Source: an uncultured delta proteobacterium
GTDB lineage: Bacteria > Desulfobacterota > BSN033 > UBA1163
NCBI GenBank assembly: GCA_963731045.1
Contig: CAVSVC010000010.1
Location: 74,630-138,629, forward strand
Length of the DNA: 64,000 bases
Direction of reading: 5' to 3'
The notes beneath the pieces are model-generated. The model did no database searches. It saw only the letters and a program-made list of their open reading frames with translations, and was not told where the DNA came from. The number at the start of each line of letters is the position of its first letter. Positions within the stretch are counted from its first letter, which is position 1. Below, piece by piece: positions 8,866 through 23,764 of this stretch. The position numbers were made by a program, and so were the translations under genes.

Positions 8866-10338
8866 TCACCGGTCCAGGACCTCGCGGACTTTCTTCGCGA
8901 GGGTCGTCGGCGAGAAGGGTTTCTGTAGAAACGGATCTCCCGGCTTGATCAGGGCCTGATGCGTCATCGTTAAATCGGAGTATCCGGAGATGAAAAGTAC
9001 TTTCGCTTCGGGGTGAAGCGTTCTGAATCGGCTAACGAGTTCTCTTCCGCCCACCTGGGGCATGACCACATCGGTAAGAAGAAGATGGATCTCCCTGCCG
9101 GCATAGTCGCGGCCCAGGTGGATGGCCTCGTTTCCGTGGATGGCCTCGATGACCGTGTACCCCTGGTCCCGCAGAATCCGGGCGGCCAATTCACGAACCG
9201 ATGTGTCGTCTTCCACAAGGAGAACCGTCTCATCTCCCTTCGGAGGGGGCTCTTTGGTATCGCGGGGAAGAAGCGTATCGATTTCTTCCTCGATTCGCGG
9301 CAGATAAACCTTGAACGAGGTGCCCCGGTTGACCTCGCTGTAAACCCAGATGTTTCCTCCGCTCTGTTTGACGATGCCGTAAACCGTGGAAAGGCCGAGG
9401 CCGGTCCCCTTTCCTTTCGTTGTAAAGAAGGGTTCGAAGATATGTTCCCTGACCTCGGCCGGCATCCCGCAGCCGGTATCGGTCACTGAGAGCACCACAT
9501 AGCTTCCGGGTCTGACCCCGACATGATAACGGGCGTATTCCTCATCCAGTGCCACATTGGCTGTTTCGAGCAGGAGGGTCCCGCCTTTCGGCATGGCGTC
9601 TCTTGCATTGACGACCAGGTTGAGGATCACCTGCTCGATTTGACTCAGATCGGTCCTGACCCTTCCCAGATCCTGAGCCAAAAGGGTTTTCAACTCGACG
9701 TCCTCCCCGATGATCCGGCGTAACATCCTGTCCAGGTCCTTCAATACCGCATTCAGATCGATCACCTTCATGTCCATGATCTGGCGCCGGCTGAAGGCCA
9801 GAAGCTGATGGGTCAATGCAGAGGCTTTCTCCGTCGCTTTCCGGATCTCCTCCAGATTTCCCCTCATGGGATCGCCCTCTTCAACTCCCAAGAGACAGAG
9901 CTGGGTGTAGCCGCTGAGGACCGTCAACAGGTTGTTGAAGTCATGGGCCACCCCCCCTGCCAGTTTTCCGATCGTCTCCATCTTCTGAGACTGAAAGAAT
10001 TGATTCTCGAGATGCTTTCGTTCGGTGATGTCTTCAATGATGAAGATGGTGAAATCCGGCTCTCCCTCTTCACTCCGGAGAAGTGAAACATTGACCAGCC
10101 CCCAGACGAAGCTGCCGTCTTTTCTGACATAGCGCTTCTCAATCTGGTAGTGATTTCGATTTCCGGACACCAGTTCCTCGTAGGACGGAACTTCCGCGGC
10201 GACATCCTCAGGATGGGTGAATTCTCTGAACAGTCTGTTCTGGAGCTCTTCTTTCCCATATCCAAGCATCCTCTCCAGGGCGGCATTGCTCTCAACAAGC
10301 CTCCCCCCCATATCCACAAGGGCGATCCCCGCCGCCAC
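8866..10338 (-). CDS. Soluble hybrid sensor histidine kinase (PAS-HisKA-HATPase-REC)
   Basis: ORF 8866..10338. H-box [12 protein letters not shown]-boxes DTGCGM and GTGLGLS, and a C-terminal receiver (VLLVEDD...LLLTDVVMP). The true start is probably ATG 10403 (SD GGAGG), reached through a homopolymer indel; see findings. Confidence 0.85.
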
Positions 10339-10503: not shown

Positions 10504-10869
10504 TCATGCGAACACCTGTGAGGTGATCCTGTCAATTTCAAAAATGTCCAGAGGTTTTCTCAAGTAGTTGAGGATGCCGAGGGATTTTGCCTCGTCTTCC
10601 ACACTCTCCTGATTACTTGCCGTAATGATGACCACGTCCACCTCTTTCTTATTTTCATGAAGCCGTCTCAGAATATCGATCCCATCGATGCCCGGCATCT
10701 TGATATCCAGAAACATGAGACTGGGCGGGTCGTCCTCCAGAATTTGAAGGGCTTTATAACCGTTTTCCGCTTTGATCAGATCGTATCGATCACCCAGAAG
10801 GACTTCAAAAGAATCGAGGATCCCTTGATCATCATCCACAACCAGAATTCGTTTTGAAAGATTTTCCAT
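10504..10869 (-). CDS. Single-domain CheY-like response regulator
   Basis: ORF 10504..11076. The receiver signature starts at ATG 10869 (MENLSKRILVVDDDQG...FLDIKMPGIDG...VIITA). Confidence 0.85.
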   Translation of the reverse strand: MENLSKRILVVDDDQGILDSFEVLLGDRYDLIKAENGYKALQILEDDPPSLMFLDIKMPGIDGIDILRRLHENKKEVDVVIITASNQESVEDEAKSLGILNYLRKPLDIFEIDRITSQVFA

Positions 10870-11086: not shown

Positions 11087-12985
11087 CTAAGGGATGTTAA
11101 GGAAATTCAGGAGAGCGGAGAGCGGATTGCCTATCCTAGTAGGCAGTTCTAAGTTTTTACAACAGGGAGTTCTCAGAACAACGAGGGCTCCTTTGCCTTT
11201 TTCACTCGTGACCTCAATGGAGCCTCTGTGGTCCTCCATGATCTTGTGAGCCAGGGCCATCCCGAGACCCACGCCCTTATCCTTGGTGGTGTAGAAAGGG
11301 TTAAAGATGTTCTTAGCGGTCACTTCGTCCATCCCGATTCCGGTATCCCGGAAGGCGATCTTGACCCTCGGCGACCCGGACTTCTCAACCCTGGAGGATA
11401 CCGAAAGCCGTCCCCCGCCCGGCATGGCCTGAAGGGCGTTGATGATCAGGTTCGAAAAAGCGCGGTAGAGCTTGTCGGGGTCACCATGGATCCCTCGAAG
11501 GCTTCGGTCCAGATGATCCTCAAAAACGATCTGTTTCCTGGCCATCTCTTCGTCATGGAGGTCCGTGACCTGAAGAATCAGTTGATTGACGTCGACATGA
11601 ACAAAGGGTCTCTTCCGGGTTCGGGTCAATTCCAGAAGATCTTCCACCAGTTGATTGATCCGTTCAATTTCGCGGGGGACCGTGACATTGAATCGCTCCA
11701 TAAAAGAGAGATTTTCAACCTTTTTGGGCAGGAGCTGGACGAAGGTCTTGATGGCCGAGAGGGGGTTCTTGATTTCGTGAGCAAGACCCGCAGAAAGGGT
11801 CCCCAGGGCTGCCAGGCGATCCGCCTGCCGGAGTTTCTCCTCCAATCCCTTCATCTCCGTGATGTCCTGGAAGATCGCCAGCGCTCCGATGGCCTTCTTC
11901 TCCCCATCCGTCAGGACCGAGGTGCTCGCCAGGATCCACAGCGTTTCTTCGCCTCTCTTCAGTTCACGCTCGGAAAGGAATAGCCCTTCGCCTTCGGAGA
12001 GGGTCTCGGTCAACATGGCCGAGAGGGGGTGGCTCACCCCCAGGACCTCCTCCAGGTTCCTCCCCGCCATTTCCTCCTCCCTTCTGGCCAGAATGCGCAC
12101 AGCCATCTGATTGAGGGTGACGATTCTCTTTTCCGGATCGATCGTCACGAGTCCATTGGTCATGGAGGCAAGCACGTTATCCGTATAGGCTTTGAGGGAG
12201 GTGATTTCCCGGAGACGGGTTTCCAATTCCATCCTGTGTAGAAGAATCTGCCGGATCATGTGATGAAAGTTCTTTCCCAGCTCTTCAATTTCATCCCCCG
12301 TCCGGATGTCGATGGCCTGTTCAAGATTTCCCCTCGCTGCCGCAATGGTCGATTCCACCAACCTCGAAATGGGTTGGGTGATCCGTCTTGCAAAAAAGAT
12401 GGAACCCAGAATACCGAGGATCACGGCGAAGAAAGCCAGGAGGAGGAGGTTGAAACGCGTCCGGGTAATCTGGCGATACATTCTCTCAAGGGAGAGGCCG
12501 ATTCGGACGGTTCCCCATTTCTCTTCGGACCCTTTGATAAAAACAGGAACGGCAATATCGAGGATCCTTTTTCCCGACTCCCCGTAAGACACGGCCGTGA
12601 CGGTGGGTTTCCGGGCCTCCAGCGCTTTTTGACTGACCTCATCCGTCAGGATCACCCCCTGTTTTTCATCGTGCCGACTGTACACAGCGACTTTCGTCTC
12701 CTTGTCATGGATGATCACGTAATCGATGTCCTCATCAAGCGCAACCTTTTCGCCGTTCTGCTGCAGAACGACATAGTTATAGGTGAGGAGGGCATTGATA
12801 CTGACGGAGGCCAGGTTTTGAGCAATGGCCAGCCCCCGCTTTCTCGACTCTTCCTGAATGATTTCAGACTGGCGTTTCTCAACCAAAAAAATGATGATGG
12901 CCATGAGGACAAGAATCAGGACCGTAGAATAAAGAATGAGACGGTTTTGCAGACGGAGCGATTTTGTTTTCAGAGGCAGAATCAT
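11087..12985 (-). CDS. Membrane sensor histidine kinase (extracytoplasmic domain-HAMP-PAS-HisKA-HATPase), NtrB/AtoS-like
   Basis: ORF 11087..12985. Two TM segments flank an approximately 150-aa loop. HAMP (RRITQPISRL), PAS, H-box AGLAHEIKNPLSAI, and G-boxes DTGIGM and GVGLGM. Confidence 0.9.
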   Translation of the reverse strand: MILPLKTKSLRLQNRLILYSTVLILVLMAIIIFLVEKRQSEIIQEESRKRGLAIAQNLASVSINALLTYNYVVLQQNGEKVALDEDIDYVIIHDKETKVAVYSRHDEKQGVILTDEVSQKALEARKPTVTAVSYGESGKRILDIAVPVFIKGSEEKWGTVRIGLSLERMYRQITRTRFNLLLLAFFAVILGILGSIFFARRITQPISRLVESTIAAARGNLEQAIDIRTGDEIEELGKNFHHMIRQILLHRMELETRLREITSLKAYTDNVLASMTNGLVTIDPEKRIVTLNQMAVRILARREEEMAGRNLEEVLGVSHPLSAMLTETLSEGEGLFLSERELKRGEETLWILASTSVLTDGEKKAIGALAIFQDITEMKGLEEKLRQADRLAALGTLSAGLAHEIKNPLSAIKTFVQLLPKKVENLSFMERFNVTVPREIERINQLVEDLLELTRTRKRPFVHVDVNQLILQVTDLHDEEMARKQIVFEDHLDRSLRGIHGDPDKLYRAFSNLIINALQAMPGGGRLSVSSRVEKSGSPRVKIAFRDTGIGMDEVTAKNIFNPFYTTKDKGVGLGMALAHKIMEDHRGSIEVTSEKGKGALVVLRTPCCKNLELPTRIGNPLSALLNFLNIP

Positions 12986-13012: not shown

Positions 13013-14533
13013 TTACTTCTTCTTCAACCATATTTTCTTCATCGGGATGTAAGGCCCCCCAAGGGCGCTCACCTCCACCCCCCTGACGTAAGGTTGATAG
13101 ACCATCTGAAAGAGGGGGTTGACCATGGGGACAATCGGAGCGTCATCCAGAATCATCTCCTCGATCTTTCGGTACATCTCCATTCGCTTGAGATAATCCC
13201 TCTCGGCCCTTGCCTGTTCGAGGAGACGATCGACTTCCGGGTTTTGATAGGCCGTGTAATTATATTTGGATTTGGAATGGAAAAGCGTCCCGAGAAAATT
13301 ATCCGGGTCCGGGAAATCAGCGTACCAGGCATAGATGAAGACAGGGGCCTTGTGATTCCTGAGAAGGGATTCGTACGCAGGCCAGTTGGTTTCAAAACGG
13401 ATGTTCGTTCGCATGCCGATCCTGTTCAGCCGTGACTTGACTTCATTGAGCTCTTTCCGGGCTGCCTCGGACTGGGTCGCACTCCAGATTTCCAGGATCT
13501 GGTTTTTCAGGTCCCCTCCTTCGGCAAGGAGTTTCCTGGCCCGGATTTCATCAAAAGGATACATTTCTTTCTGGGGATCGTGGCCGGGCATCCCCGGGGG
13601 TAAAATACTCTTAGCCAGCATGAACTGATTCTTGTGAAGCTCGGAAACGATGAATTTCTTGTCGATGGCAAGATTGATGGCCTTTCTCAATCCCCGATGA
13701 TCCAGGGGGTTCGACAAGAGATGGAAACCATAGAATCTCAGGGAGAGAAGGGGTTTCTGCAAAAAAGGGTACTGTTTTTCCTGGACGATCTTCTCCAATC
13801 GGTCAGGAGGAATGAAGGATTCCTCCAGAGCACCTTCCTCGAAGGCCCGCAGGATCTCATTCCTGGGGGCTCCGTGGTAGACCTTGAAGACAATCCGATC
13901 CAGAAAAGGCCTTCCCTCAAAGTAATCCGGATTGGCCTCGAGAACGATCTCTTCCCCTTCTTTCATCGACACCAGCTTGAACGGCCCGGTCCCCACGGGA
14001 AAATTCCTGAAACCGATCCCCTTTTTTTTCCCCACCTCTTCCCTGGGAACAACCTTGGCGCCCTTCATGGCAAGGATGCTGATAAATGGGGCATAGGGTT
14101 CGGTCAGAATAATCCGGAGGGTGCGTTCATCCACCGCCACGAGCCCCTTTACCCCTTTTGCCCTTTTTTCCATGAACTCGTTTGCGCCGAGGATCCTGTT
14201 GAAAAAATCGGCGAAATTCGATTGCACATCCGAATCGAGTATCCGGGTGAAGGAGTATACGAAATCCGCTGCAGTCACCTTCCTGCCGTTGTGAAACCGG
14301 ACCCCTTCCCTCAGGTGAAACGTGTAGGTGAGGCCATCCGGAGAGATCTCCCACGATTTTGCAATGGCCGGAACCGTGTTGAGATCCTTGTCGAATTGAA
14401 CCAGGCCATCGAAGATCTGCTGAATGACCGTTGTCGAATAGATGTCCCTGGATAAGGCGGGATCAAGTGTTCTCGGACTGAACTCGAGAGGAATCCGATA
14501 GATCCCTCCGTGATTCGGGGGCTCTTTCTCCAT
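13013..14533 (-). CDS. Family-5 (OppA/DppA/NikA-type) solute-binding protein, orphan (no cognate permease or ATPase genes)
   Basis: ORF 13013..14533 has typical SBP_bac_5 sequence (IAKSWEISPDGLTYTFHLREGVRFHNG). A signal-peptide-like segment (FLFFILLQLFVLSWICPASAQS) lies in frame upstream of ATG 14533 but has no canonical start; see findings. Confidence 0.85.
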   Translation of the reverse strand: MEKEPPNHGGIYRIPLEFSPRTLDPALSRDIYSTTVIQQIFDGLVQFDKDLNTVPAIAKSWEISPDGLTYTFHLREGVRFHNGRKVTAADFVYSFTRILDSDVQSNFADFFNRILGANEFMEKRAKGVKGLVAVDERTLRIILTEPYAPFISILAMKGAKVVPREEVGKKKGIGFRNFPVGTGPFKLVSMKEGEEIVLEANPDYFEGRPFLDRIVFKVYHGAPRNEILRAFEEGALEESFIPPDRLEKIVQEKQYPFLQKPLLSLRFYGFHLLSNPLDHRGLRKAINLAIDKKFIVSELHKNQFMLAKSILPPGMPGHDPQKEMYPFDEIRARKLLAEGGDLKNQILEIWSATQSEAARKELNEVKSRLNRIGMRTNIRFETNWPAYESLLRNHKAPVFIYAWYADFPDPDNFLGTLFHSKSKYNYTAYQNPEVDRLLEQARAERDYLKRMEMYRKIEEMILDDAPIVPMVNPLFQMVYQPYVRGVEVSALGGPYIPMKKIWLKKK

Positions 14534-14718
14534 CGCATCGCCCGAAGGACTTTGAGCCGACGCAGGGCAGATCCACGAGAGGACAAACAGCTGGAGAAGA
14601 ATGAAGAATAAAAATACGTTTGGCCGTTTGCACTTCGGGTGACCTCTAAAATATCCTTGATTCTCTTGGTAACGCTCTGCCGCATATCTTAGAGGGAAAA
14701 AGATGAATTTTCAAGGAC

Positions 14719-14756
14719 AAAAAAAAGAAGCATGATCCCTTCCGAGACATGCTTCT
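14719..14756 (-). terminator. Rho-independent terminator of the micro-gene
   Basis: The minus strand reads AGAAGCATG-tctcggaagggat-CATGCTTCT followed by T8. It starts 31 nt after the micro-ORF stop. Confidence 0.7.
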
Positions 14757-14787
14757 TCTTTTCGTCTGCCGGAAAATCCTTGCCGGA

Positions 14788-14877
14788 TTACCATCCACCT
14801 CCGTCGGCCAGAACCGGGAGCACATAGGCGGCCACTGTCGCTGCTACGATAAGAAGCTCGATCGCGATCTTCTTCAT
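14788..14877 (-). CDS. 29-aa micro-protein MKKIAIELLIVAATVAAYVLPVLADGGGW (Sec-signal-like leader plus pentapeptide, or a single-pass membrane peptide)
   Basis: Too short for the ORF track. ATG 14877 is preceded by GGAGGAGGTGATATC and the stop is TAA 14790-14788. It has its own sigma54 promoter upstream and its own terminator downstream. Confidence 0.6.
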   Translation of the reverse strand: MKKIAIELLIVAATVAAYVLPVLADGGGW

Positions 14878-14941
14878 GATATCACCTCCTCCGATTGGAT
14901 TGAGATAAAGGAACCTGATAAGAACGATGCTGGGGTAGAAG

Positions 14942-14958
14942 AGCAAGACGGGTGCCGG
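14942..14958 (-). promoter_or_regulatory. Sigma54 (-24/-12) promoter
   Basis: The minus strand reads CGGCAC-CCGTC-TTGCT, against the consensus TGGCAC-N5-TTGCW. The GG-N10-GC spacing is exact. The TTGC lies 65 nt upstream of the micro-ORF ATG and directly downstream of a sigma54 activator gene. Confidence 0.7.
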
Positions 14959-15065
14959 AAGAAATGGAGGTCCATTTCTCCGGCCCGGCGGAGGGTAAAT
15001 TGCTGTGATAAAAGGAGTTTTCGGGCAAGCCGTTATTTGGTGTTAGGAAAAGCCCCTTCCGATCA

Positions 15066-15170
15066 GCTGCCTATTCGATTGGGCAGCCCTTGGAGGGAAC
15101 AGGCGGAAAACCATGAAGAACTATTTGATTCAATGGAGGAAGTCTTGATTGCCCATGATGACGGGCAATC
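15066..15170 (-). promoter_or_regulatory. Two dyad-symmetric candidate activator (UAS) sites
   Basis: TGCCTATTCGATTGGGCA (15068-15085) and TGCCCATGATGACGGGCA (15150-15167) both fit TGCC[CT]-N8-GGGCA. Their centres are 82 bp apart, and about 126 and 208 bp upstream of the -24/-12 element. Confidence 0.4.
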
Positions 15171-15442
15171 CATAGAAAAATAAGCGGCTTCCCGGACGAA
15201 ACGAACCCGGACAGACCGTGTTGCGAGCCTTCAAATGCCGGTTTTTGAGAGATCTAAGGGGAAACGGAGGATTTTACTTCCGGCTGCAAAGCGGGTCGCC
15301 GGGGCTGAGTCAACTCATCGGCTCCCCGGCATAAATGTCGGGGCTTGCTCAATAGACCCTGAGCGGCGTTCCTATCCCCGCCTAAAAGGCGGGGCTTCGC
15401 GCCGTCGAACGGGTGAAGCCTCCTTCATCCAACATCAGGACT

Positions 15443-16828
15443 TTATCCGCTTGGTTTCTTGAGGAGTATGCCGAATTGTTTGGCTTTCTGCAGGAGGGTG
15501 TTCCGGTTGATTTTGAGGATTTTGGCCGCCTCCGTCTGGTTCCACCGGGTCGTTTCGAGAACGTTCACGATCATTCTTTTCTCGAACTCTTCCCTGATTC
15601 GGAGGAGCCCCGCCTTCGGCAGATCGAGCCCCCTGACATCCTGGTTCGAAGACATCAGGATTTCTAACGGGATGTCCTCCAATTGAATCGGCTCGGTGCG
15701 ACTCGAAAGAACGACGATCCTCTCAATGAGGTTCTCCAGTTCGCGAATATTCCCCGGCCAATGATACCGCATCAGGCCTTCCATGGCTTTGTCGGAGAAT
15801 CCCGGGATCCTCTTGTGAAAGGCAAGGTTGAACTTGTTCAGGAAATGCTTTGCCAGGAGCGGCATGTCCTCGCTCCTCTCCCGGAGGGACGGGAGGGTGA
15901 TGGGTACAACGTTGAGTCTGAAATAGAGGTCCTGCCGGAACTTCCCTTCCTGGACGGCATGGTCCAGGTTGGTATTGGTGGCGGCAATCACCCGGATATC
16001 GATCTTGAAGGGCTTATTCGATCCGATCCGTTCAATCTCTCTTTCCTGAAGGACCCTCAAAAGCTTTGCCTGAAGATCATGCCTTAATGCGGAGATCTCA
16101 TCGAGAAAAAGGGTGCCGCCATGGGCGTGCTCAAACTTTCCGATCGTCCTCGTGTGAGCTCCTGTAAAGGCCCCCTTTTCGTGGCCGAACATCTCGCTTT
16201 CCATCAATTCAGACGGAATGGCCGCGCAGTTGATTGCCACAAAAGGGCCGCTTTTTCGATTTCCCTGCTCGTGAACGGACCGGGCAATCAGTTCTTTCCC
16301 GGTTCCGCTCTCCCCGGTAATAAGAATACTGGTGGAGGTGAAGGAGACCTTTCTGATGAGGTCGAAGATGTCCAGCATCACTTTGCTCCGGCCAACAATC
16401 TTGTCCGGTCCCCGAAACTGTTTGACTTCTTTCCGGAGGTAGTCCAGTTCTTTCTGAAGCCGCTGATTGCTGATTACCCGCTCGACGGTGGACAGGATCT
16501 CCTCCGGTTCATAGGGCTTGGTGATGTAATCGTAGGCGCCCAGTTTGATCGCGTCCGCCGCCTTTCGGGCGAGGTTGAGGGCAGAGACCATGATGACATC
16601 GATCCCTTCATCCACTTCTTTGATCCGCCGAAGTACCTCCAACCCGTCCATGTCCGGCATATTGACGTCCAGGAGAACAAGATCCACGGGCACTTTCCTG
16701 ATCGTTCTTAACGCCTCCTGCCCGCTTTCCACACTATGGAGTCGGTAATCGTCTTCAAGGATGACTTCAAGCGATTCCCTGGCGCCGGGCTCATCATCGA
16801 CGATCAAGAGACTGGGTTTGATTTCCAT
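15443..16828 (-). CDS. Sigma54-dependent response regulator (REC-AAA+-Fis HTH), NtrC family
   Basis: ORF 15443..17131. Receiver (LLIVDDEPG...LLDVNMPDMDG), Walker A GESGTGKE, GAFTGA motif, and C-terminal HTH (RWNQTEAAKILKINRNTL). I moved the start to ATG 16828 (MEIKPSLLIV). Confidence 0.9.
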   Translation of the reverse strand: MEIKPSLLIVDDEPGARESLEVILEDDYRLHSVESGQEALRTIRKVPVDLVLLDVNMPDMDGLEVLRRIKEVDEGIDVIMVSALNLARKAADAIKLGAYDYITKPYEPEEILSTVERVISNQRLQKELDYLRKEVKQFRGPDKIVGRSKVMLDIFDLIRKVSFTSTSILITGESGTGKELIARSVHEQGNRKSGPFVAINCAAIPSELMESEMFGHEKGAFTGAHTRTIGKFEHAHGGTLFLDEISALRHDLQAKLLRVLQEREIERIGSNKPFKIDIRVIAATNTNLDHAVQEGKFRQDLYFRLNVVPITLPSLRERSEDMPLLAKHFLNKFNLAFHKRIPGFSDKAMEGLMRYHWPGNIRELENLIERIVVLSSRTEPIQLEDIPLEILMSSNQDVRGLDLPKAGLLRIREEFEKRMIVNVLETTRWNQTEAAKILKINRNTLLQKAKQFGILLKKPSG

Positions 16829-16835
16829 CGTTGAA

Positions 16836-16864
16836 AATATAATGGAAAAGGTTTTCGCCGTCAA
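16836..16864 (-). promoter_or_regulatory. Sigma70-type promoter of the activator gene; the transcript may be leaderless
   Basis: The minus strand reads TTGACG(16864-16859)-N17-TATATT(16841-16836), then only 7 nt (TTCAACG) before ATG 16828. There is no SD. Confidence 0.4.
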
Positions 16865-17217: not shown

Positions 17218-17922
17218 ATGCGCTTCACGGTTCAGAAAGAGTTGTTTGATCACCTGCCCGATCTTACGCTTGGCGTCGTCGTCGCAACCGGCCTGGACAA
17301 TACCCGTCCCCGCAAAGAAATCGATGATCTTCTGACCCGGGCTGTCGGAGGAATCAAGGAGAACATCAACACGGGGAAACCCCAGGACCATCCCAGGATC
17401 AAACCCTGGAGAGCGGCTTTTTCAAAGGTTGGCATTTCGGGAAGTAAATTTCCGAGTTCCATCGAGTCGATGACCCGGAGAATTCTGAAGGGAGACCCCT
17501 TTCCGAGAATCAACCCCCTGGTTGATCTTTATAACAGTCTCTCGTTGAAGTATCTGGTTCCCATGGGCGGTCACGATCTGGATACCCTGAGGGGAGATGT
17601 CCATCTTCGATTCGCGGAGGGATGGGAACCTTTTACCCCGATGGGAACAGGAGAACCCATGATCGTCCCAAAAGGGGAACTCGTCTATCGAGACGAACAG
17701 GAGGTGCTTACCCGGAATTGGGCATGGCGTCAGTGCGAAAAAGATAAAGCCACGGAAAGAACGAAAAACATCTTCATTCCCATCGACGTTCTTGGAGAGG
17801 TGGGCAAAGAGAGGGCGGGTGAAATCATCCGGGAGTTGGACACCTTGATCCCGCAGTTTCTGGGAGGGAAGATCCTTTCGTCCATTCTGGACAGCGAACA
17901 TCCCTCCGTGGAGATTGGGTGA
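17218..17922 (+). CDS. B3/B4 tRNA-binding-domain protein (PheT B3/B4-like)
   Basis: ORF 17218..17922, SD GAGAGGAG. The sequence pattern (DLTLGVVVATGLDN...PSSIESMTRR...INPLVDLYNSLSLKYLVPMGGHDLD) is typical of stand-alone B3/B4 proteins. Confidence 0.8.
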   Translation: MRFTVQKELFDHLPDLTLGVVVATGLDNTRPRKEIDDLLTRAVGGIKENINTGKPQDHPRIKPWRAAFSKVGISGSKFPSSIESMTRRILKGDPFPRINPLVDLYNSLSLKYLVPMGGHDLDTLRGDVHLRFAEGWEPFTPMGTGEPMIVPKGELVYRDEQEVLTRNWAWRQCEKDKATERTKNIFIPIDVLGEVGKERAGEIIRELDTLIPQFLGGKILSSILDSEHPSVEIG

Positions 17923-17974
17923 CCCGAGTCCCGGCCTGGTCGCGGGCGGAAAAACTTACCCTCAGGGCCTGGAA

Positions 17975-18004
17975 AGAAAAAAAGGGAAGAGTCTTGCTCT
18001 TCCC
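17975..18004 (-). terminator. Terminator of the small lipoprotein gene
   Basis: Stem GGGAAGAG (17984-17991) / CTCTTCCC (17997-18004). On the minus strand it is followed by T9. Confidence 0.55.
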
Positions 18005-18080
18005 TTACAAAAACGTTCTCTTTCCTCCTATGGGCCCATTTTACTCTTTCATCGACTCAGGCTTCTTGCTGCGAAAAGAA

Positions 18081-18242
18081 TCAGAATCCTTTCTTCTGAA
18101 TTTCCGCTAAGCCTTCATCCACTGTAAAAACGGCACCACATTTGGGGCATTTAATCTTTGTGTCTTTTGCAATGCCACCGCATCCTACCGAGAAAACTGC
18201 CAACATCGCCAATGCCAAGAAAATACTCACCCATTTCCTCAT
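18081..18242 (-). CDS. 53-aa putative lipoprotein with a CxxC knuckle
   Basis: Not in the ORF track. ATG 18242 follows AAGGAGGTGA. The product is MRKWVSIFLALAMLAVFSVGCGGIAKDTKIKCPKCGAVFTVDEGLAEIQKKGF, with a lipobox-like SVGC and CPKC. A terminator lies downstream. Confidence 0.6.
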   Translation of the reverse strand: MRKWVSIFLALAMLAVFSVGCGGIAKDTKIKCPKCGAVFTVDEGLAEIQKKGF

Positions 18243-18726
18243 TACGCTTCACCTCCTTTCGTTAAAGGTCTGGAGAAGTTCGGCTAACGTCACCCCGCCA
18301 ACACGAATAACAAAAAAATGAAGTTATTGTCAAGAAAAAAATGAACGAACACCAAAAAAGCGAGCGCCTCCCCGGCCCGCAGGCAGGGAATCAGGTCAGA
18401 CCGATAGCAGGTTCCCGGAAACATCGGCTATGAAGGGCGTATCCGGTCTTTCGTCGGCGCTTTCAAGGAAACCTATTTTTTCTTGGACGTCCCTTTCTTG
18501 GTTGCCTTCTTCGTTTTAGGAGTCTTCGTTCCACAGGCCATCTGTTCCCCCCGTTGTTTTCGTGCTAATTATTGATTTATTTATCTCTTTTAATTTACTA
18601 TTTGTCAAGAGTTTTCTTAATCGGGATTTCCGTAACGAAAACAGGGGTCTTATCGTCGGCCTCCTTTTCCCGGAAAAGAGAAGCCGTTTTTACTTCCCGT
18701 CTCTCCGTGGATTTGTCAAGGGTGCC

Positions 18727-19866
18727 ATGCCGCTGAAACGGACGAAAACAGCCCTTCTCCATCGAACGGATTACCTCTCGGGCAATGAAGCAGCTGCAGA
18801 GGCGGCCATTGCCGCCGGTTGCAGGTTTTACGCCGGATATCCCATCACCCCTTCCAGCGAAATCATGGAACGCATGGCGGTCCGTCTCGCGGAGGTGGGA
18901 GGGGTCTTCATCCAGATGGAGGATGAGATCGGTTCCATCTCCGCCGTCATCGGAGCGTCATGGGCCGGGGCGAAGGCCATGACCGCCACATCGGGTCCCG
19001 GATTCAGCCTGATGCAGGAAGCGATCGGATACGCCGCATTTACCGAAACGCCCTGCGTCGTCATGGATGTCCAGCGGGCAGGTCCCGGCACCGGCCAGGC
19101 GACCAGAGTGGGAAGCGGTGACGTCATGCAGGCGAAATGGGGCTCCCATGGCGACTATCAGGTGATCGCCCTCTCTCCCTGGTCGGTTCAGGAAATGGCG
19201 GATTTCACCATTCAGGCCTTCAATCTCAGCGAACGGTATCGTGTCCCTGCCATGGTTCTGGCCGACGCAGCCATCGGTCATCTTCGGGAAAATGTTTCCA
19301 TCCCACGAAGGATCGAAACCTGGTCCAGAAAGAAGAGGAAAGGGGCTCCCCCTTTCGGGACCGATTCGGAAGACGGGGTTCCGGATATGCCGGCTTTCGG
19401 GGAGGGCGCCCGTCTGCTCGTCACCGGGTCCACCCATGATGCGATGGGTTTCCGAAAGACCGATGATCCGGAGGCTCATGCCAGACTCGTCGAGCGTATC
19501 CATCAAAAAATCCTGAAGCATCGGGGATCGATTGCTCAAACCGAATCCTACTTCCTGGAAGAGGCTGAAACGGTTGTCGTGGCCTACGGGTTCACTGCCC
19601 GGACGAGCCTCTATGCGGTCAGAAGACTGCGTCAGGAGGGCGCAAAGGTCGGCTTGTTAAGATTGAAAACCCTCTGGCCTTTCCCGGAGGAGGCGGTTCG
19701 AAAAGCAGGGGAGCGGGTTCAGTGGGTCGTCGTTCCCGAAATGAATCAGGGCCAGGTTGCCGGAGAGGTGAAAAAGGCGTGTCTTCGCGATGTCCTCCAG
19801 ATCCATCAAAGCAACGGGGAAGTCATCCGTCCCGAGAAGATCTTTGAGGTTTTGAAGAACCTGTAG
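18727..19866 (+). CDS. korA: 2-oxoacid:ferredoxin oxidoreductase, alpha subunit
   Basis: ORF 18562..19866. Homology begins at ATG 18727 (MPLKRTK...GNEAAAEAAIAAGCRFYAGYPITPSSEI). Confidence 0.9.
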   Translation: MPLKRTKTALLHRTDYLSGNEAAAEAAIAAGCRFYAGYPITPSSEIMERMAVRLAEVGGVFIQMEDEIGSISAVIGASWAGAKAMTATSGPGFSLMQEAIGYAAFTETPCVVMDVQRAGPGTGQATRVGSGDVMQAKWGSHGDYQVIALSPWSVQEMADFTIQAFNLSERYRVPAMVLADAAIGHLRENVSIPRRIETWSRKKRKGAPPFGTDSEDGVPDMPAFGEGARLLVTGSTHDAMGFRKTDDPEAHARLVERIHQKILKHRGSIAQTESYFLEEAETVVVAYGFTARTSLYAVRRLRQEGAKVGLLRLKTLWPFPEEAVRKAGERVQWVVVPEMNQGQVAGEVKKACLRDVLQIHQSNGEVIRPEKIFEVLKNL

Positions 19867-19935
19867 GGAGGACGTCTGCTGCTTCGAGATCGGACGGGTG
19901 GCAGCACGGGATGGCCCTACGGATGAGGTTCCGCA

Positions 19936-20700
19936 ATGGCAAGAGCAATGGAAAAGTATCTCCGCCCCGGCGTCAAGGGAACCCCTTTCTGCCCGGGCTG
20001 CGGCCACGGGATCCTGATGCATGCCGTTTTAAGGGCCATAGATGAACTCAACCTGAAGATGGAGAAGCTGCTCTTTGTCTCCGGGATCGGGTGCGCTGCG
20101 TGGATCCCCAGTCCCCATTTTAATGGAGACACCCTTCATACCCTTCACGGCAGGGCGCTGGCCTTTGCCACGGGGGCCAAACTCTTCAACCCGGATCTCA
20201 CGGTGATGGTCATCAGCGGAGACGGAGATCTTTCTTCGATCGGAGGAAATCATCTGATCCACGCGGCAAGAAGAAACATCGACCTGAAGGTGATCTGTGC
20301 CAACAATATGATCTACGGGATGACGGGCGGACAGGTTGCCTCGACCACGCCGAAAGGATCAAGAACCTCCACCACAGAAGAAGGGAATCCCTACCGTCCT
20401 TTTGATCTGTGCAAGCTGGTGGAGGCCGCAGGCGCAACGTACGTGGCCAGGTACTCCGTCACACAACCCGAAGGGCTGATGCGCTCCATCAAGAAGGCTT
20501 TTCTCAACAGAGGGTTCTCTTTCATCGAGGTCCTCTCTCCCTGTCCGACACAGTTCGGCAGAAGGAATCAATTCGACCGCCCTGAGGATATGGTCCAGAA
20601 CCTCATCCGGCAATGCATTCTCAAGGAGGAGGCGGAGCGGTTGACGGAGGAAGAACTGTCCGGAAGGATCATCACCGGGGAATTCGTCTGTTCATCTTAA
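19936..20700 (+). CDS. korB: 2-oxoacid:ferredoxin oxidoreductase, beta (TPP-binding) subunit
   Basis: ORF 19936..20700. FCPGCGHG and the TPP motif ISGDGDLSSIGGNHLIHAARRN. Confidence 0.9.
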   Translation: MARAMEKYLRPGVKGTPFCPGCGHGILMHAVLRAIDELNLKMEKLLFVSGIGCAAWIPSPHFNGDTLHTLHGRALAFATGAKLFNPDLTVMVISGDGDLSSIGGNHLIHAARRNIDLKVICANNMIYGMTGGQVASTTPKGSRTSTTEEGNPYRPFDLCKLVEAAGATYVARYSVTQPEGLMRSIKKAFLNRGFSFIEVLSPCPTQFGRRNQFDRPEDMVQNLIRQCILKEEAERLTEEELSGRIITGEFVCSS

Positions 20701-20724
20701 ACTTTCCCTATCGGATGGGATGCC

Positions 20725-21273
20725 GTGGCAAAGATCACACAGGTTCGTTTGAGCGGTTTTGGAGGCCAGGGGATTGTCCTGGCAGGAAGACTCCTGGGTC
20801 ATGCGGGGGTGATCGAAGGGAAATATGTTTGCGGCTCGGACGCCTATGGTGCCCAGGCCCGGGGCTCCGGCTGCAAATCGGAGGTCATTTTTTCAAAGGA
20901 TCCCATCGACTTTCCCCATCTGATCGGAGCGGACATTCTTGTGGCTATGTCGCAGCAGGCCTATCAGGCGGACTGTGACGATGTTATAAAACCGTCAGGG
21001 CTCGTTTTTTACGATCAGGGGCAGGTGACACCCAGGCAGGATTTGAATGTGAGTCAATTTGGAATTCCGGCGACAGCCTATGCCGTCAAGAAACTGAAGA
21101 ACAGGCAGGTTGCAAACATCATCCTGGTCGGCAGCCTTGTGGAGAAGACGGGAATCGTCTCTCCCGGTACCCTCCGGAAGGCTATCCGTTCTTTGATCCC
21201 CCCAAGATTCTCGGCCCTGAACATCGAGGCCTTCCGGGTCGGCATGGACCTGGGGAGAAAAACGCATGGTTGA
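20725..21273 (+). CDS. korC: 2-oxoacid:ferredoxin oxidoreductase, gamma subunit
   Basis: ORF 20725..21273 (GTG start). RLSGFGGQGIVLAG is typical of the gamma subunit. Confidence 0.85.
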   Translation: MAKITQVRLSGFGGQGIVLAGRLLGHAGVIEGKYVCGSDAYGAQARGSGCKSEVIFSKDPIDFPHLIGADILVAMSQQAYQADCDDVIKPSGLVFYDQGQVTPRQDLNVSQFGIPATAYAVKKLKNRQVANIILVGSLVEKTGIVSPGTLRKAIRSLIPPRFSALNIEAFRVGMDLGRKTHG

Positions 21274-22648
21274 GGGAAGAACCCACAGGCCGGTGATTCA
21301 TCCGGAGAAATGCCGGAGCTGCAATATCTGCATCAGAGGGTGTCCTGCGGAAATCATTCCGGAATACCGACAGGAACCGGAGACCCTGCGTGGCGCCCTT
21401 TACAGAGGAAGGTTGACAGAAGCCGGACGGGAAGACCGGGTGCCGCTTCCTCCGTGTCAGGAGGCCTGTCCCATCCATCAGGATACAAGAGGCTATGCCG
21501 GCCTCATTGCCAGAGGAAAGCTGAAAGAGGCCCTCGAATTGATCCGGGAAGTTAACCCCCTCCCGGCTGTCTGTGGATTTATCTGCCACCACCTTTGTGA
21601 AGAGGCCTGTTTGAGAACCGAGGTGGATCAGCCCGTCCCGCTCAGGCTCCTGAAGCGCTTCGTCGCGGAATACGAGAGGGAAGGAGGGAGGGTCCTCCGC
21701 AGACCCCGGAAAAAGAGACGCGAAAGAATCCTGGTGATCGGTTCCGGACCTGCAGGCCTGACGGCAGCCAATGATTTGAGCCTTCTGGGATACGGGGTGG
21801 TCATTATGGAAGCCCTTCCGGTCTCCGGGGGAATGCTTGCCGTGGGGATCCCGGAATTTCGGTTACCCAGGGACATCCTCAAAATGGAAATCGAAGGCAT
21901 CAAAGCACTCGGGGTGGAGGTCCGGACGGAACACCCTTTCCGGTTCGACGGGAGCGTGAACGTCTTTCGAAAGCTCGGCTTCCAGGCGGTCTTTCTTTCC
22001 ATCGGGGCCCATCGCAGCGCCCGCCTGAAGGTGCCGGGCACCGCATTCCAGGGGGTCTCATCTGGAGTGGAATTCCTGCGGGATCTGAACCTCGGTAAGA
22101 CCATGCCGGTTGGAAAGAAAGTCGTCGTGATCGGCGGCGGGAATGTCGCCCTTGATGTGGCGCGTTCCGTCATTCGACGGAAAGCGGAGTCGGTCGACCT
22201 CATTTATCGAAGATCCCGGAGAGAGATGCCCGCCATGGCCGAGGAAGTGGATGAAGCCGTTCGCGAAGGGATCAGGATGCTTTTTCTTGCGTCTCCCGTT
22301 CGAATCACCGGAAAAAACGGCAAGGCAACCGGTCTGGAATGTGTCCGAATGGAGCTTGGCCCGCTCGATCGATCAGGGAGACCATGGCCGGTCCCGATTG
22401 AAGGATCCGGTTTCAGGGTGAAGGCCGATCGCATCATTTCAGCCATAGGCCAGCGTGTGGACTCAAGCGCTTTAAGAGGACTCGCCCTCCGGGAAGATGG
22501 AACCCTGGCGGTCCATCCGGACACCGGGGCAGCGAACGTGGAAGGTGTTTTTGCAGGAGGGGACGTGGTCACAGGACCTGGCTGGGCGATCGATGCCATC
22601 GCAGCCGGCAAAAGGGGGGCCGTATCGATCGATCAATACCTTTCATGA
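21266..22648 (+). CDS. GltD/NfnB/SudA-like FAD-dependent NAD(P)H oxidoreductase with Fe-S clusters
   Basis: ORF 21266..22648 overlaps the korC stop by 8 nt. It has an N-terminal CRSCNICIRGCP and the GltD-type cluster region (CQEACP...VCGFICHHLCEEACLR). There are two dinucleotide folds (VIGSGPAGL, VIGGGNVALD). Confidence 0.85.
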   Translation: MVEGRTHRPVIHPEKCRSCNICIRGCPAEIIPEYRQEPETLRGALYRGRLTEAGREDRVPLPPCQEACPIHQDTRGYAGLIARGKLKEALELIREVNPLPAVCGFICHHLCEEACLRTEVDQPVPLRLLKRFVAEYEREGGRVLRRPRKKRRERILVIGSGPAGLTAANDLSLLGYGVVIMEALPVSGGMLAVGIPEFRLPRDILKMEIEGIKALGVEVRTEHPFRFDGSVNVFRKLGFQAVFLSIGAHRSARLKVPGTAFQGVSSGVEFLRDLNLGKTMPVGKKVVVIGGGNVALDVARSVIRRKAESVDLIYRRSRREMPAMAEEVDEAVREGIRMLFLASPVRITGKNGKATGLECVRMELGPLDRSGRPWPVPIEGSGFRVKADRIISAIGQRVDSSALRGLALREDGTLAVHPDTGAANVEGVFAGGDVVTGPGWAIDAIAAGKRGAVSIDQYLS

Positions 22649-22658
22649 AGGGGCGGGA

Positions 22659-22982
22659 ATGACGAGGGAATGTAAGAAAGAAGTTGTACCGAAGCCGAAA
22701 CGGGAAGGCCCGCTTCACAGGAAGCGAAGGCAGGGCCCCCCCGCCGGAGAATCCGGCCTTCAAAAGGAAGAGGCCGTTCAGGAAGCCCAACGTTGCCTGG
22801 GGTTGCGGGAATGTGAATCGTGTGAGACCTGTTCTCTCTTCTGCCCCGATCTCTGCATCACCCGGGACGAGAAGACAGGGCAGGTCCAGATCGACCTGAA
22901 CTACTGCAAAGGATGCGGCATCTGTGCATCCGTCTGTCCCAAAAAAGCGATTCAGATGGTCCTGGAAGGGGAAGGGGTATGA
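22659..22982 (+). CDS. korD: 2x[4Fe-4S] ferredoxin, delta subunit of the 2-oxoacid oxidoreductase
   Basis: This is the C-terminal part of ORF 22497..22982, starting at ATG 22659. Motifs CESCETCSLFCP and CKGCGICASVCP. Confidence 0.8.
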   Translation: MTRECKKEVVPKPKREGPLHRKRRQGPPAGESGLQKEEAVQEAQRCLGLRECESCETCSLFCPDLCITRDEKTGQVQIDLNYCKGCGICASVCPKKAIQMVLEGEGV

Positions 22983-23764
22983 AAGAGAAGATACGGTTCG
23001 ATCTCAATTCCGATGTCGGAGAGAGTTTCGGAGTTTACAAACTGGGACTCGATGAGGACGTGATTCCTCACATCACCTCCGCAAACATCGCCTGTGGTTT
23101 CCATGCCGGGGATCCCGGGGTCATGCGGAAGACCGTCGCCCTGGCCAAACAGTATGGTGTCGCCGTCGGCGCCCATCCCGGATTTCCAGACCTCATGGGA
23201 TTCGGAAGAAGAAAGATGGACGCCACGATCGAAGAAATCCAGGATTACGTCGTCTATCAGACCGGGGCCCTTCAGGCCTTTGCCAGGGCTCAGGGGCTCA
23301 AATTGCAGCACCTGAAAGCGCACGGCGGTCTCTACAACATGGCTGTGGCAAATCCGAAAATCTGGCAGGCCATGGCCGAGGCTGTAGCCAGCGTGGATCC
23401 GGAGATCATTCTGATCGTCCTGGCTTCCTCAATGAGAGACACCCTGCTGGAGACGGGAAAACGGGTGGGGATCCGTTTCGCCTTTGAAGCCTTTCCTGAC
23501 CGCGCCTACAACAGCGATGGCGCGCTGACCTCGCGAAGAGAAAAAGGGGCAGTGATCGAAGACCATCAACGAGTGGCTCAGAGGGCACTGAAAATGGCCC
23601 TGGAGGGGAAAGTCGTTGCGACCGATGGGACAGAGATTGACCTCAGGGCGGAAACCCTCTGCGTTCACGGGGACAACCCTGCCGCAGTCCAGATGGTCAA
23701 AAAGATCCGGGAAGACCTGAAAACAGCCGGCGTCGAAGTGACAGCCCTGCAGAATCTATTCTAA
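22979..23764 (+). CDS. pxpA: 5-oxoprolinase subunit A (LamB/YcsF family)
   Basis: ORF 22913..23764. Start ATG 22979 overlaps the korD stop (ATGA). DLNSDVGESFG...ANIACGFHAGDP is characteristic. Confidence 0.9.
   Translation: MKEKIRFDLNSDVGESFGVYKLGLDEDVIPHITSANIACGFHAGDPGVMRKTVALAKQYGVAVGAHPGFPDLMGFGRRKMDATIEEIQDYVVYQTGALQAFARAQGLKLQHLKAHGGLYNMAVANPKIWQAMAEAVASVDPEIILIVLASSMRDTLLETGKRVGIRFAFEAFPDRAYNSDGALTSRREKGAVIEDHQRVAQRALKMALEGKVVATDGTEIDLRAETLCVHGDNPAAVQMVKKIREDLKTAGVEVTALQNLF

Follow-up and report, generated by a model that had tools for sequence, protein, structure and literature searches.

The peptide gene and its related loci

The DNA analysed here (the window) is a 64,000-nucleotide stretch of contig CAVSVC010000010.1 (assembly GCA_963731045.1) of an uncultured delta proteobacterium. 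On its minus strand, to which the positions below refer unless stated otherwise, a gene of only 29 codons (ATG 14877, TAA 14790-14788) follows the gene of a sigma-54 response regulator, its presumed activator, and precedes the genes of a periplasmic substrate-binding protein (SBP) and a sensor histidine kinase. The first-pass annotation, made from the window sequence alone, had read the small gene as a complete stand-alone sigma-54 transcription unit. This was borne out: the unit is monocistronic, all the elements named were present within 1 bp of the positions given, and they are conserved together in approximately 100 related loci. Its last residue co-varies with the neighbouring SBP, and this points to a peptide-based signalling loop, so far undescribed, in uncultured bacteria of sediments.

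The related loci were collected from activator homologues and their contigs, from a scan of species-representative genomes with the peptide alignment (17 loci), from a metagenome scan (80 loci) and from look-ups of distant peptides; some of the loci are duplicates of one contig. All the 17 species-representative loci came from metagenome-assembled genomes of uncultured Deltaproteobacteria, Syntrophaceae or Thermodesulfobacteriota. In approximately 100 loci a 29-codon open reading frame (ORF) was found at the same place, while the activator identity ranged from 84% down to 53%. In 68 of 70 loci the activator gene immediately preceded the peptide gene, and in 80 of 81 the SBP gene immediately followed it. 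Both upstream dyads, the A/T-rich block, the Shine-Dalgarno (SD) sequence, the ORF, the terminator and a sigma-70-type promoter of the SBP gene were conserved in the alignments. The comparison of the dyads, the -24/-12 element and the ORF across relatives had been proposed in the first-pass annotation, together with the condition that loss of the reading frame or of the -24/-12 element would speak against the unit. All of them were conserved together in the approximately 100 loci, frame and promoter included.

Promoter and upstream sites of the peptide unit

The sigma-54 promoter CGGCAC-CCGTC-TTGCT was located by motif match and conservation at 14957-14942, one base shorter than the 14958-14942 proposed at first. 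Its core, GGCAC-N5-TTGC, has no other exact match in the window, where 0.23 would be expected. A single match of this kind is not significant alone, since at least one was obtained in 17 of 100 shuffles; it gains its significance from the conservation across related loci. The pattern [CT]GGC[AG][CT]-N5-TTG[CA][TA] was present 70-91 nt before the ATG in 93 of the 94 loci with enough upstream DNA, and the remaining locus carries GGCTC. In the related loci examined, all matches of the sigma-54 motif were on the coding strand. The element thus shows the GG (-24) and GC (-12) doublets 10 bp apart, the orientation, the distance to the gene and the conservation of a sigma-54 promoter, and from its position the transcription start of the peptide unit is predicted near 14931.

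Two dyads lie further upstream, exactly where they had been noticed before and with the same spacing of 82 bp between their centres. The first upstream activating sequence, UAS1 (TGCCC-N8-GGGCA, dyad TGCCCGTCATCATGGGCA), is found at 15167-15150, approximately 210 bp upstream of the -24 element, and UAS2 (TGCCC-N8-AGGCA, also readable as CTGCC-N10-GGCAG, dyad TGCCCAATCGAATAGGCA) at 15085-15068, approximately 128 bp upstream of it. The pattern TGCC-N10-GGCA occurs three times in the 64 kb, against 0.74 expected. The position of UAS1 (-197 to -210, near -207) was kept in 14 of 24 loci passing the dyad-symmetry filter and a UAS2-type dyad near -126 in 16 of 24 under the same filter, with the UAS2 family consensus TGCCTAT-N4-ATAGGCA. 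The dyads of the peptide promoter therefore lie within 80-250 bp upstream at a position that is kept, as enhancers do. Between UAS2 and the promoter, a block of conserved A/T-rich columns (14995..15021) was seen in a 23-sequence alignment. In most loci it reads AAACAA-N4-TTA, one mismatch from the consensus WATCAA-N4-TTR of the integration host factor (IHF), and the copy in the window is weaker; the block is a candidate DNA-bending (IHF) site.

Two further observations concern the flanks of this region. In the 5' leader, directly before the SD sequence, a conserved AAATCCAT-like element is present (AATCCAAT in the window, 14895-14902). Upstream, the distance between the activator stop codon and UAS1 is approximately 270 nt (15170-15442), while most related loci have about 40 nt there. 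This stretch is rich in GC hairpins, e.g. GCCCCGCC-TTTTA-GGCGGGG, has no second copy in the window, and gave a single Rfam match below threshold (HgcC, E = 0.046).

Coding evidence and terminator

The SD sequence GGAGGAGGTGAT (14892-14881), of which AAGGAGGTGAT is nearly invariant in the alignment, and the start and stop codons of the gene were confirmed at the positions reported earlier, in a frame kept across the approximately 100 loci. In 21 orthologues the entropy summed over the first, second and third codon positions was 11.1, 5.3 and 29.3, respectively; all 28 third positions were variable and the length was 29 codons in every case. This comparison shows that the peptide gene is translated and under purifying selection.

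The gene is followed by an intrinsic terminator (14719..14762), identified by folding, which consists of an A-tract, a stem (14757-14748 paired with 14734-14725) and U8 (14726-14719). The stem, previously counted as 9 bp, has 10 bp. The 101-nt terminator region folds at -45.7 kcal/mol (z = -7.3), and in the alignment the terminator is conserved with compensatory changes in the stem. A simple terminator scan did not detect it, as its loop exceeds 8 nt. Apart from the terminator, the predicted 213-nt transcript showed no unusual fold (z = -1.07), and its search against the Rfam 15 covariance models gave only sub-threshold noise. The earlier suggestion that either the tiny product or the short RNA is the regulated output could thus be narrowed down: by the third-position substitutions, the fixed length and the lack of an Rfam match and of an unusual fold, it is the peptide and not the RNA.

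The plus-strand ORF 14749..15183 (144 amino acids), which overlaps these signals and had been called probably spurious, has no Pfam match. In 88 related loci the longest stop-free antisense stretch had a median of 58 and a maximum of 118 amino acids, so the ORF is not conserved, and by this comparison it is spurious.

The sequence of the peptide

In all, 73 distinct 29-mers were compared; the query of the protein search was the 52-amino-acid upstream-extended ORF. The sources naming these 29-mers label them 'hypothetical protein', and searches of Pfam, NCBIfam and Rfam assigned neither the peptide nor its transcript to a family. A weak NCBIfam match to AimP, confined to the N-terminal hydrophobic part, falls short of significance (E = 0.2; 11.9 bits, cut-off 35).

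The signal-peptide assignment was made by rule, i.e. by a basic n-region, a hydrophobic region, a helix breaker at -4 to -6 and small residues at -1 and -3. Codons 1-24 (MKKIAIELLIVAATVAAYVLPVLA, 14806..14877) encode an n-region MKK, a hydrophobic core of 13-17 residues and a c-region P-V-L-A. Residues 18-22 and 24 (Y-V-L-P-V-x-A) are invariant in the 73 peptides, which places invariant residues at -4 (Pro21), -3 (Val22) and -1 (Ala24) of a possible cleavage site of signal peptidase I, with the variable position 23 (Leu, Phe or Met) at -2. Residues 1-24 therefore read as a Sec-type signal peptide, and the predicted remainder is a five-residue tail, [D/E]GGG-X. The tail of the window peptide is DGGGW (codons 25-29, 14788..14805 with the TAA), which belongs to the W class by its last residue, the one that defines the class and matches the SBP cluster. 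Positions 26-28 are nearly always Gly, and Asp or Glu predominates at position 25. The highest variability (2.15 bits) is seen at position 29, with Trp in 33 peptides, Tyr in 19, Cys in 9 and Ser in 6, followed by Gly, Ala, Asn and Glu.

More distant relatives of 30 amino acids were recovered by a profile search of 1.84 billion representatives. Their hydrophobic core varies freely (e.g. MKKLMVQLFVFGVILGAYVLPVLADGGAGP), but Y-x-L-P-V-L-A is retained, and so is a Gly-rich tail of 5-6 residues. In the cases with sufficient recovered sequence, the distant peptides lie in the same sigma-54/SBP module. Locus L108 has the activator, peptide, SBP, kinase and receiver genes at 53, 41 and 40% identity for activator, SBP and kinase, respectively, and its promoter, TGGTCC-N5-TTGC, is a loose match only; in L111 and L114 the sigma-54 promoter, the peptide gene, the terminator and the SBP gene are present.

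In several loci one sigma-54 unit comprises two peptide genes in tandem, both of them preceded by an SD sequence (L026 4949-5180, L027 92-329, L049, L050, L051, L052 and L095). Three tandem peptide genes were seen in L013 (4853-5210), an error-rich contig. Gene callers often merge tandem copies into spurious ORFs of 50-60 amino acids that start inside the previous copy (e.g. P0133, P0135, P0136 and P0138). A peptide paralogue with the same SD sequence and first 24 residues, extended to 57 amino acids (..VLACYGDWFTLSLSL..), was found in L023 (4231-5391). A radical SAM/SPASM gene follows it at 13 nt, an AraC-type response regulator is encoded upstream of it, and it has no sigma-54 motif; this may be an offshoot resembling the ribosomally synthesized and post-translationally modified peptides (RiPPs), or a chance fusion.

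Covariation of the tail and the SBP

Average-linkage clustering of 64 distinct SBPs at a distance of 0.30 gave three clusters, which match the last residue of the tail exactly (64 of 64): one with Trp (27 of 27), one with Tyr or Cys (29 of 29 peptide copies) and one with small residues, Gly, Ser, Asn, Ala or Asp (12). The activators do not follow this division. Of the seven activator clusters within 10% divergence four were mixed in class, one of them containing all three classes, whereas the SBP clusters were never mixed. Among activators at least 95% identical (distance <0.05), the SBP distance was 0.03 when the last residue of the peptide was the same and 0.35 when it was different.

The borders of the variable block were mapped by sliding-window comparison of such pairs. 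The nucleotide identity is 93-99% from the B3_4-domain gene over the activator gene, the dyads and the promoter into the 5' part of the peptide ORF. At the 3' end of this ORF it falls to 50-75%, stays low across the whole SBP gene, and is back at 93-100% where the kinase gene begins. The variable cassette does not include the kinase, which is 93-100% identical across class switches. L009 and L048 begin to differ at the third base of the final Gly codon and then in the final codon of the ORF, TAT and AGT, respectively. At least five independent concordant switches were counted in activator clusters of at most 10% divergence, as in a pherotype cassette. The comparison thus shows that the last tail residue and the SBP vary as a cassette, independently of the activator and the kinase. 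Since this cassette contains only the tail and the SBP (besides non-coding DNA), the SBP is the sole candidate partner of the tail.

The tail lies 150-250 nt from the SBP gene, so linkage alone predicts some co-inheritance, and this weighs against a functional reading of the association. Four observations point to selection beyond linkage. Within the W and Y classes the last residue is fixed even where the SBPs diverge by up to 35%, and positions 25-28 vary; within its class Tyr is encoded by both TAT (8) and TAC (15); no other position of the peptide is class-specific; and in eight tandem-gene loci the copies differ at 2-7 residues within positions 1-24 and at none in the tail, with synonymous tail differences in five of the eight.

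The SBP as proposed receptor

The SBP gene (13013..14633; Pfam SBP_bac_5, PF00496, 1.4e-86; its longest ORF starts at ATG 14533) encodes a periplasmic protein of the Dpp/Opp family, whose closest solved relatives in the PDB are peptide-binding proteins including DppA and OppA. In the DppA and OppA structures Asp408 (DppA numbering) anchors the alpha-amino group of the ligand, and Arg355 of DppA is the anchor for the dipeptide carboxylate. Asp406 of the SBP, part of a W-Y-A-D motif, is the counterpart of DppA Asp408 in the alignment and does not vary among the 64 SBPs; the position of Arg355 falls in a gap of the SBP alignment. The family domain and the conserved Asp expected of a cluster C SBP are thus both present. 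Twelve alignment columns are fixed differently in the W and the Y/C SBPs, and seven of them lie within residues 291-313.

Among the Pfam-annotated neighbours in the window and the related loci, no ABC permease gene could be found in the module, and the kinase gene directly follows the SBP gene in at least 16 loci. The lack of a permease gene and the adjoining kinase gene argue that the SBP is an orphan of the sensor type.

A second sigma-54 promoter and the common regulator

The presumed activator (15443..16828) has the domains Response_reg, Sigma54_activat, AAA_lid_14 and HTH_8 in Pfam and is of the AtoC/NtrC type. The kinase (11087..12985) is AtoS-like, with sCache_3_2, HAMP, PAS, HisKA and HATPase domains. 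Their best NCBIfam models are AtoC (461 bits, cut-off 714) and AtoS (364 bits, cut-off 646), and from these scores they are relatives of AtoC and AtoS of the same architecture and not their orthologues. The SBP-kinase operon has a sigma-70-like promoter of its own, TTGAAA-17-TAAGAT (14686..14714); the related loci have TTGACA-17-TATATA at the same place.

Another sigma-54 promoter, CGGCATTCTTTTTGCT (11027-11012), was identified by motif match and conservation downstream of the kinase gene. A third dyad, UAS3 (TGCCTACTAGGATAGGCA, 11145-11128), lies approximately 118 bp upstream of it, inside the 3' end of the kinase gene. TGGCAT-N5-TTGCT is found after the kinase gene in most loci reaching that far, with a dyad at about -113. 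Downstream of this promoter the window contains a stand-alone receiver-domain response regulator (10504..10869, start ATG 10869) and, assigned by Pfam and synteny, a hybrid PAS histidine kinase with a receiver domain (8866..10338), which is probably in the same operon. The half-site variants (TGCCTAT..ATAGGCA, TGCCAACA..TGTTGGCA and TGTTAACA..TGTTAACA) change together by lineage across UAS1, UAS2 and UAS3, which is good evidence that one regulator serves all three sites. Most simply this would be the adjacent activator, whose binding to the three dyads is predicted. The first-pass idea of a promoter dedicated to the peptide holds in a refined form: judged from its conserved sigma-54 promoter and dyad, the receiver gene at 10869 is also an output, and the peptide unit is not the sole local target of the activator.

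Downstream of the receiver gene, L004 (12159) and L006 (12344) have an HTH_25/DUF2914 gene that is preceded by a third sigma-54 match (C/TGGCATTAT..TTGCT); no clear dyad could be found ahead of either match.

Proposed mechanism

The reading that we would give about an even chance is that the 29-mer is cleaved to a pentapeptide that the SBP-kinase-activator chain senses in a feedback loop with three specificity types. The precursor would insert in the inner membrane and signal peptidase I would cut it after Ala24, releasing a pentapeptide [D/E]GGG-X with a free amino terminus, matching the invariant Asp of the SBP. The orphan SBP would bind the pentapeptide, with a pocket for the last side chain setting the class, and the bound SBP would signal through the periplasmic sCache domain of the kinase. 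The AtoS-like kinase, with the SBP as co-sensor, would phosphorylate the AtoC-like activator, which would then bind the dyads and open both sigma-54 promoters. In this way the loop would close on the peptide gene, and the operon of the response regulator and the hybrid kinase would also be switched on. The sign of the loop may be that of auto-induction or of homeostasis, and the peptide may either leave the cell, as in quorum sensing, or act in the periplasm only. Such a cleaved signal accounts for the fixed length of the tail, the invariant residues at -1, -3 and -4, the class-specific last residue, the orphan SBP with its Asp, the tandem copies and the dedicated, tight promoter. We put forward more tentatively, as a view somewhat more likely to fail than to hold, that in diderm, uncultured, Syntrophaceae-like Deltaproteobacteria an unmodified ribosomal pentapeptide serves as a cell-cell signal, which signal-peptide cleavage releases and the SBP-kinase-activator chain senses outside the cytoplasm, with three recombining pherotypes (W, Y/C and small).

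Besides the linkage of the tail to the SBP gene, several points weigh against this mechanism. We infer cleavage, export, binding and phosphotransfer alike from the sequences. The G-G-G core of the tail would offer little information to a receptor. Sigma-54 promoters are normally silent without their activator, and it is hard to see how an auto-induction would start. Within the 29-amino-acid clade the conservation of residues 1-24 far exceeds that of the signal peptides of the SBPs from the same loci, which hints that the conserved hydrophobic segment may have a function of its own and which a cleaved signal would leave unexplained; the objection is weakened by the distant relatives, which vary the core but keep the motif and the tail. 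In a single locus, L005 (6001-8000), the activator and the peptide unit stand without an adjacent SBP-kinase pair and are followed by an MgtE gene on the opposite strand. Finally, in the window itself the signal-peptide region of the SBP (..FLFFILLQLFVLSWICPASA..) is in frame with ATG 14533 and has no start codon of its own, while the probable start, GTG 14633 (MQTAKRIF..), is in a frame shifted by one base, the shift falling within a T5 run at about 14613-14617 or close to it. Either the assembly has a homopolymer error here or the shift is real and would leave the SBP of this genome without export.

Alternative explanations

In the main rival reading the peptide is not cleaved at all and stays in the inner membrane as a single-helix micro-protein with its N-terminus inside and its tail outside, modulating the sensor complex in the manner of MgrB with PhoQ or SamT with RstB, its C-terminal residue touching the SBP. 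A product of 29 residues with a positive N-terminus and a hydrophobic stretch of about 20 residues agrees with this, being a single-helix protein of fewer than 50 amino acids within its own regulon, and residues 1-24 are near-invariant in the clade while ordinary signal peptides of the same loci diverge freely. MgrB (PMC2789325) and the 27-amino-acid SamT (PMC13425233) are tiny peptides induced by two-component systems that feed back on the kinase. The co-variation of the tail with the SBP would also fit a tethered tail. Against it, the kinase with its transmembrane and periplasmic parts lies outside the co-varying cassette, so that co-variation with the kinase, taken as a proxy of contact, was not seen; the distant relatives lose the conservation of the core and keep the cleavage-site-like motif and the tail; Asp406, invariant in the SBPs, suggests that the amino terminus of the ligand is free; and a five-residue tail at the membrane surface would be hard to fit into the SBP cleft. 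The conservation of the kinase transmembrane helices (0.80-0.87) is unremarkable, like that of the rest of the protein, and does not discriminate between the readings. On balance we consider an uncleaved modulator unlikely, though a serious contender.

Other roles of the unit seem far less probable. The order of promoter, short ORF, terminator and structural genes recalls an attenuator, in which the ORF would be a leader peptide controlling read-through of the terminator into the SBP-kinase operon. Purifying selection acts, however, on the whole amino-acid sequence and not on a few regulatory codons, no notable alternative structure appears beyond the terminator (z = -1.07), and the terminator is followed by a conserved sigma-70 promoter. 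A spacer of variable length, 30-70 nt, separates the stop codon from the hairpin, and L005 has the unit without the downstream SBP-kinase genes; attenuation is thus very improbable. It is likewise highly doubtful that the product is a membrane-active toxin, a bacteriocin or a RiPP precursor modified by a maturase. The small, hydrophobic peptide, its tandem copies in some loci and the 57-amino-acid paralogue directly before the radical SAM/SPASM gene in L023 would suit such a role, but none of the approximately 100 canonical loci yielded a maturase, immunity, exporter or antisense element, the strong SD sequence without an antitoxin does not suit a type I toxin, and the co-variation is with the SBP and not with a modifying enzyme. 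Hardly any weight can be given to a small regulatory or dual-function RNA like the sigma-54-dependent Qrr or GlmY. The predicted stand-alone transcript of approximately 210 nt, its sigma-54 promoter and the adjoining two-component system resemble those cases, yet no Rfam match or significant fold was obtained, the third-position substitutions reflect constraint at the protein level, and the leader and the 3' untranslated region are much less conserved than the ORF.

Comparison with known systems

The proposed pentapeptide loop partly resembles several known systems. In the Phr (Rap-Phr) and AimP (arbitrium) systems of Bacillus and its phages a tiny Sec-exported precursor also carries the active part in its last 5-6 residues, an SBP_bac_5 (Dpp/Opp) protein recognises the mature peptide, and peptide/receptor specificity variants occur. 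There, however, the SBP delivers to an ABC importer and a cytoplasmic RRNPP protein acts as receptor, while here the SBP gene stands beside that of a histidine kinase, the tail directly follows the signal peptide with no pro-region, and the host is diderm. Neither a TPR/RRNPP nor a permease gene was found among the Pfam neighbours in the window and the related loci, contrary to what an RRNPP pheromone system would have. In the LuxP-LuxQ-LuxO-qrr circuit of Vibrio, a periplasmic binding protein and a kinase likewise control a sigma-54 regulator, which drives tiny stand-alone sigma-54 units with their own upstream sites and terminators. It differs in its AI-2 signal, in LuxP belonging to another SBP family, in outputs that are small RNAs and not a signal precursor, and in the LuxU phosphorelay.

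The pherotype cassettes of ComQXP, Agr and ComCD are alike in having a divergent block of signal and receptor specificity between near-identical flanking regulators, in the shuffling of this block among close relatives and in a signal gene under the system's own regulator. Their receptor is the membrane domain of the kinase and most of their signals are modified, whereas in the present system the kinase is conserved and the specificity resides in a separate SBP; the promoter is of the sigma-54 type, and there are only three classes, defined by one residue. MgrB/PhoQ, SafA/PhoQ and SamT(YdgU)/RstB share a single-helix peptide of 27-47 amino acids, a monocistronic unit or small operon, membership of a two-component regulon and feedback (PMC2789325; PMC13425233). 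They differ by direct contact with the kinase, sigma-70 promoters and the lack of a co-varying binding protein, while the kinase of the present module is outside the co-varying block. From the genes and sequences compared, the peptide system is a member of none of Phr/AimP, LuxPQ-LuxO-qrr and ComQXP/Agr, since it has no RRNPP receptor and permease, no significant AimP match, an SBP of another family than LuxP, and its specificity in the SBP and not in the kinase.

The AioX-AioS-AioR system offers a parallel for the sensing part, as it too has clustered genes for an orphan periplasmic SBP, a sensor kinase and a sigma-54 activator, which act on a sigma-54 promoter; it responds to an external inorganic ion, its SBP is of another family and it controls an enzyme operon. 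Signalling by linear peptides that fall into specificity groups is considered a trait of Gram-positive bacteria, and diderm bacteria are known mainly for small-molecule autoinducers. Searches of the literature on the tail sequences, on sigma-54 small proteins and on binding-protein peptide signalling in Deltaproteobacteria gave nothing on this family, and no annotation describing the peptide family was found.

If the proposed mechanism is correct, uncultured anaerobes would possess a minimal, fully genetically defined peptide circuit consisting of a 90-nt signal gene, one SBP, one kinase and one sigma-54 activator, with three natural specificity classes differing by a single residue. Ligand-receptor specificity, kin discrimination in sediments and SBP-to-kinase signalling would then become testable with synthetic pentapeptides. 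Even if the peptide proved to be an uncleaved modulator, a sigma-54 micro-protein gene conserved in more than 100 loci and co-diversifying with a binding protein would stand. There is also a lesson for annotation, as the gene is labelled 'hypothetical protein' and some pipelines put a spurious antisense or extended ORF in its place.

Flanking genes

Upstream of the activator gene a sigma-70-like promoter, TTGACG-17-TATATT (10 of 12 positions), is found at 16836-16864. It ends 8 nt before the activator ATG at 16828, and the activator mRNA might be leaderless. Divergent from the activator, the plus strand carries the B3_4-domain gene followed by genes for subunits of a 2-oxoacid:ferredoxin oxidoreductase, a Fer4_20/Pyr_redox_2 protein and LamB_YcsF (17218-23764). 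This block is syntenic in many related loci and absent in the distant L108, and its presence probably reflects relatedness and not membership of the module.

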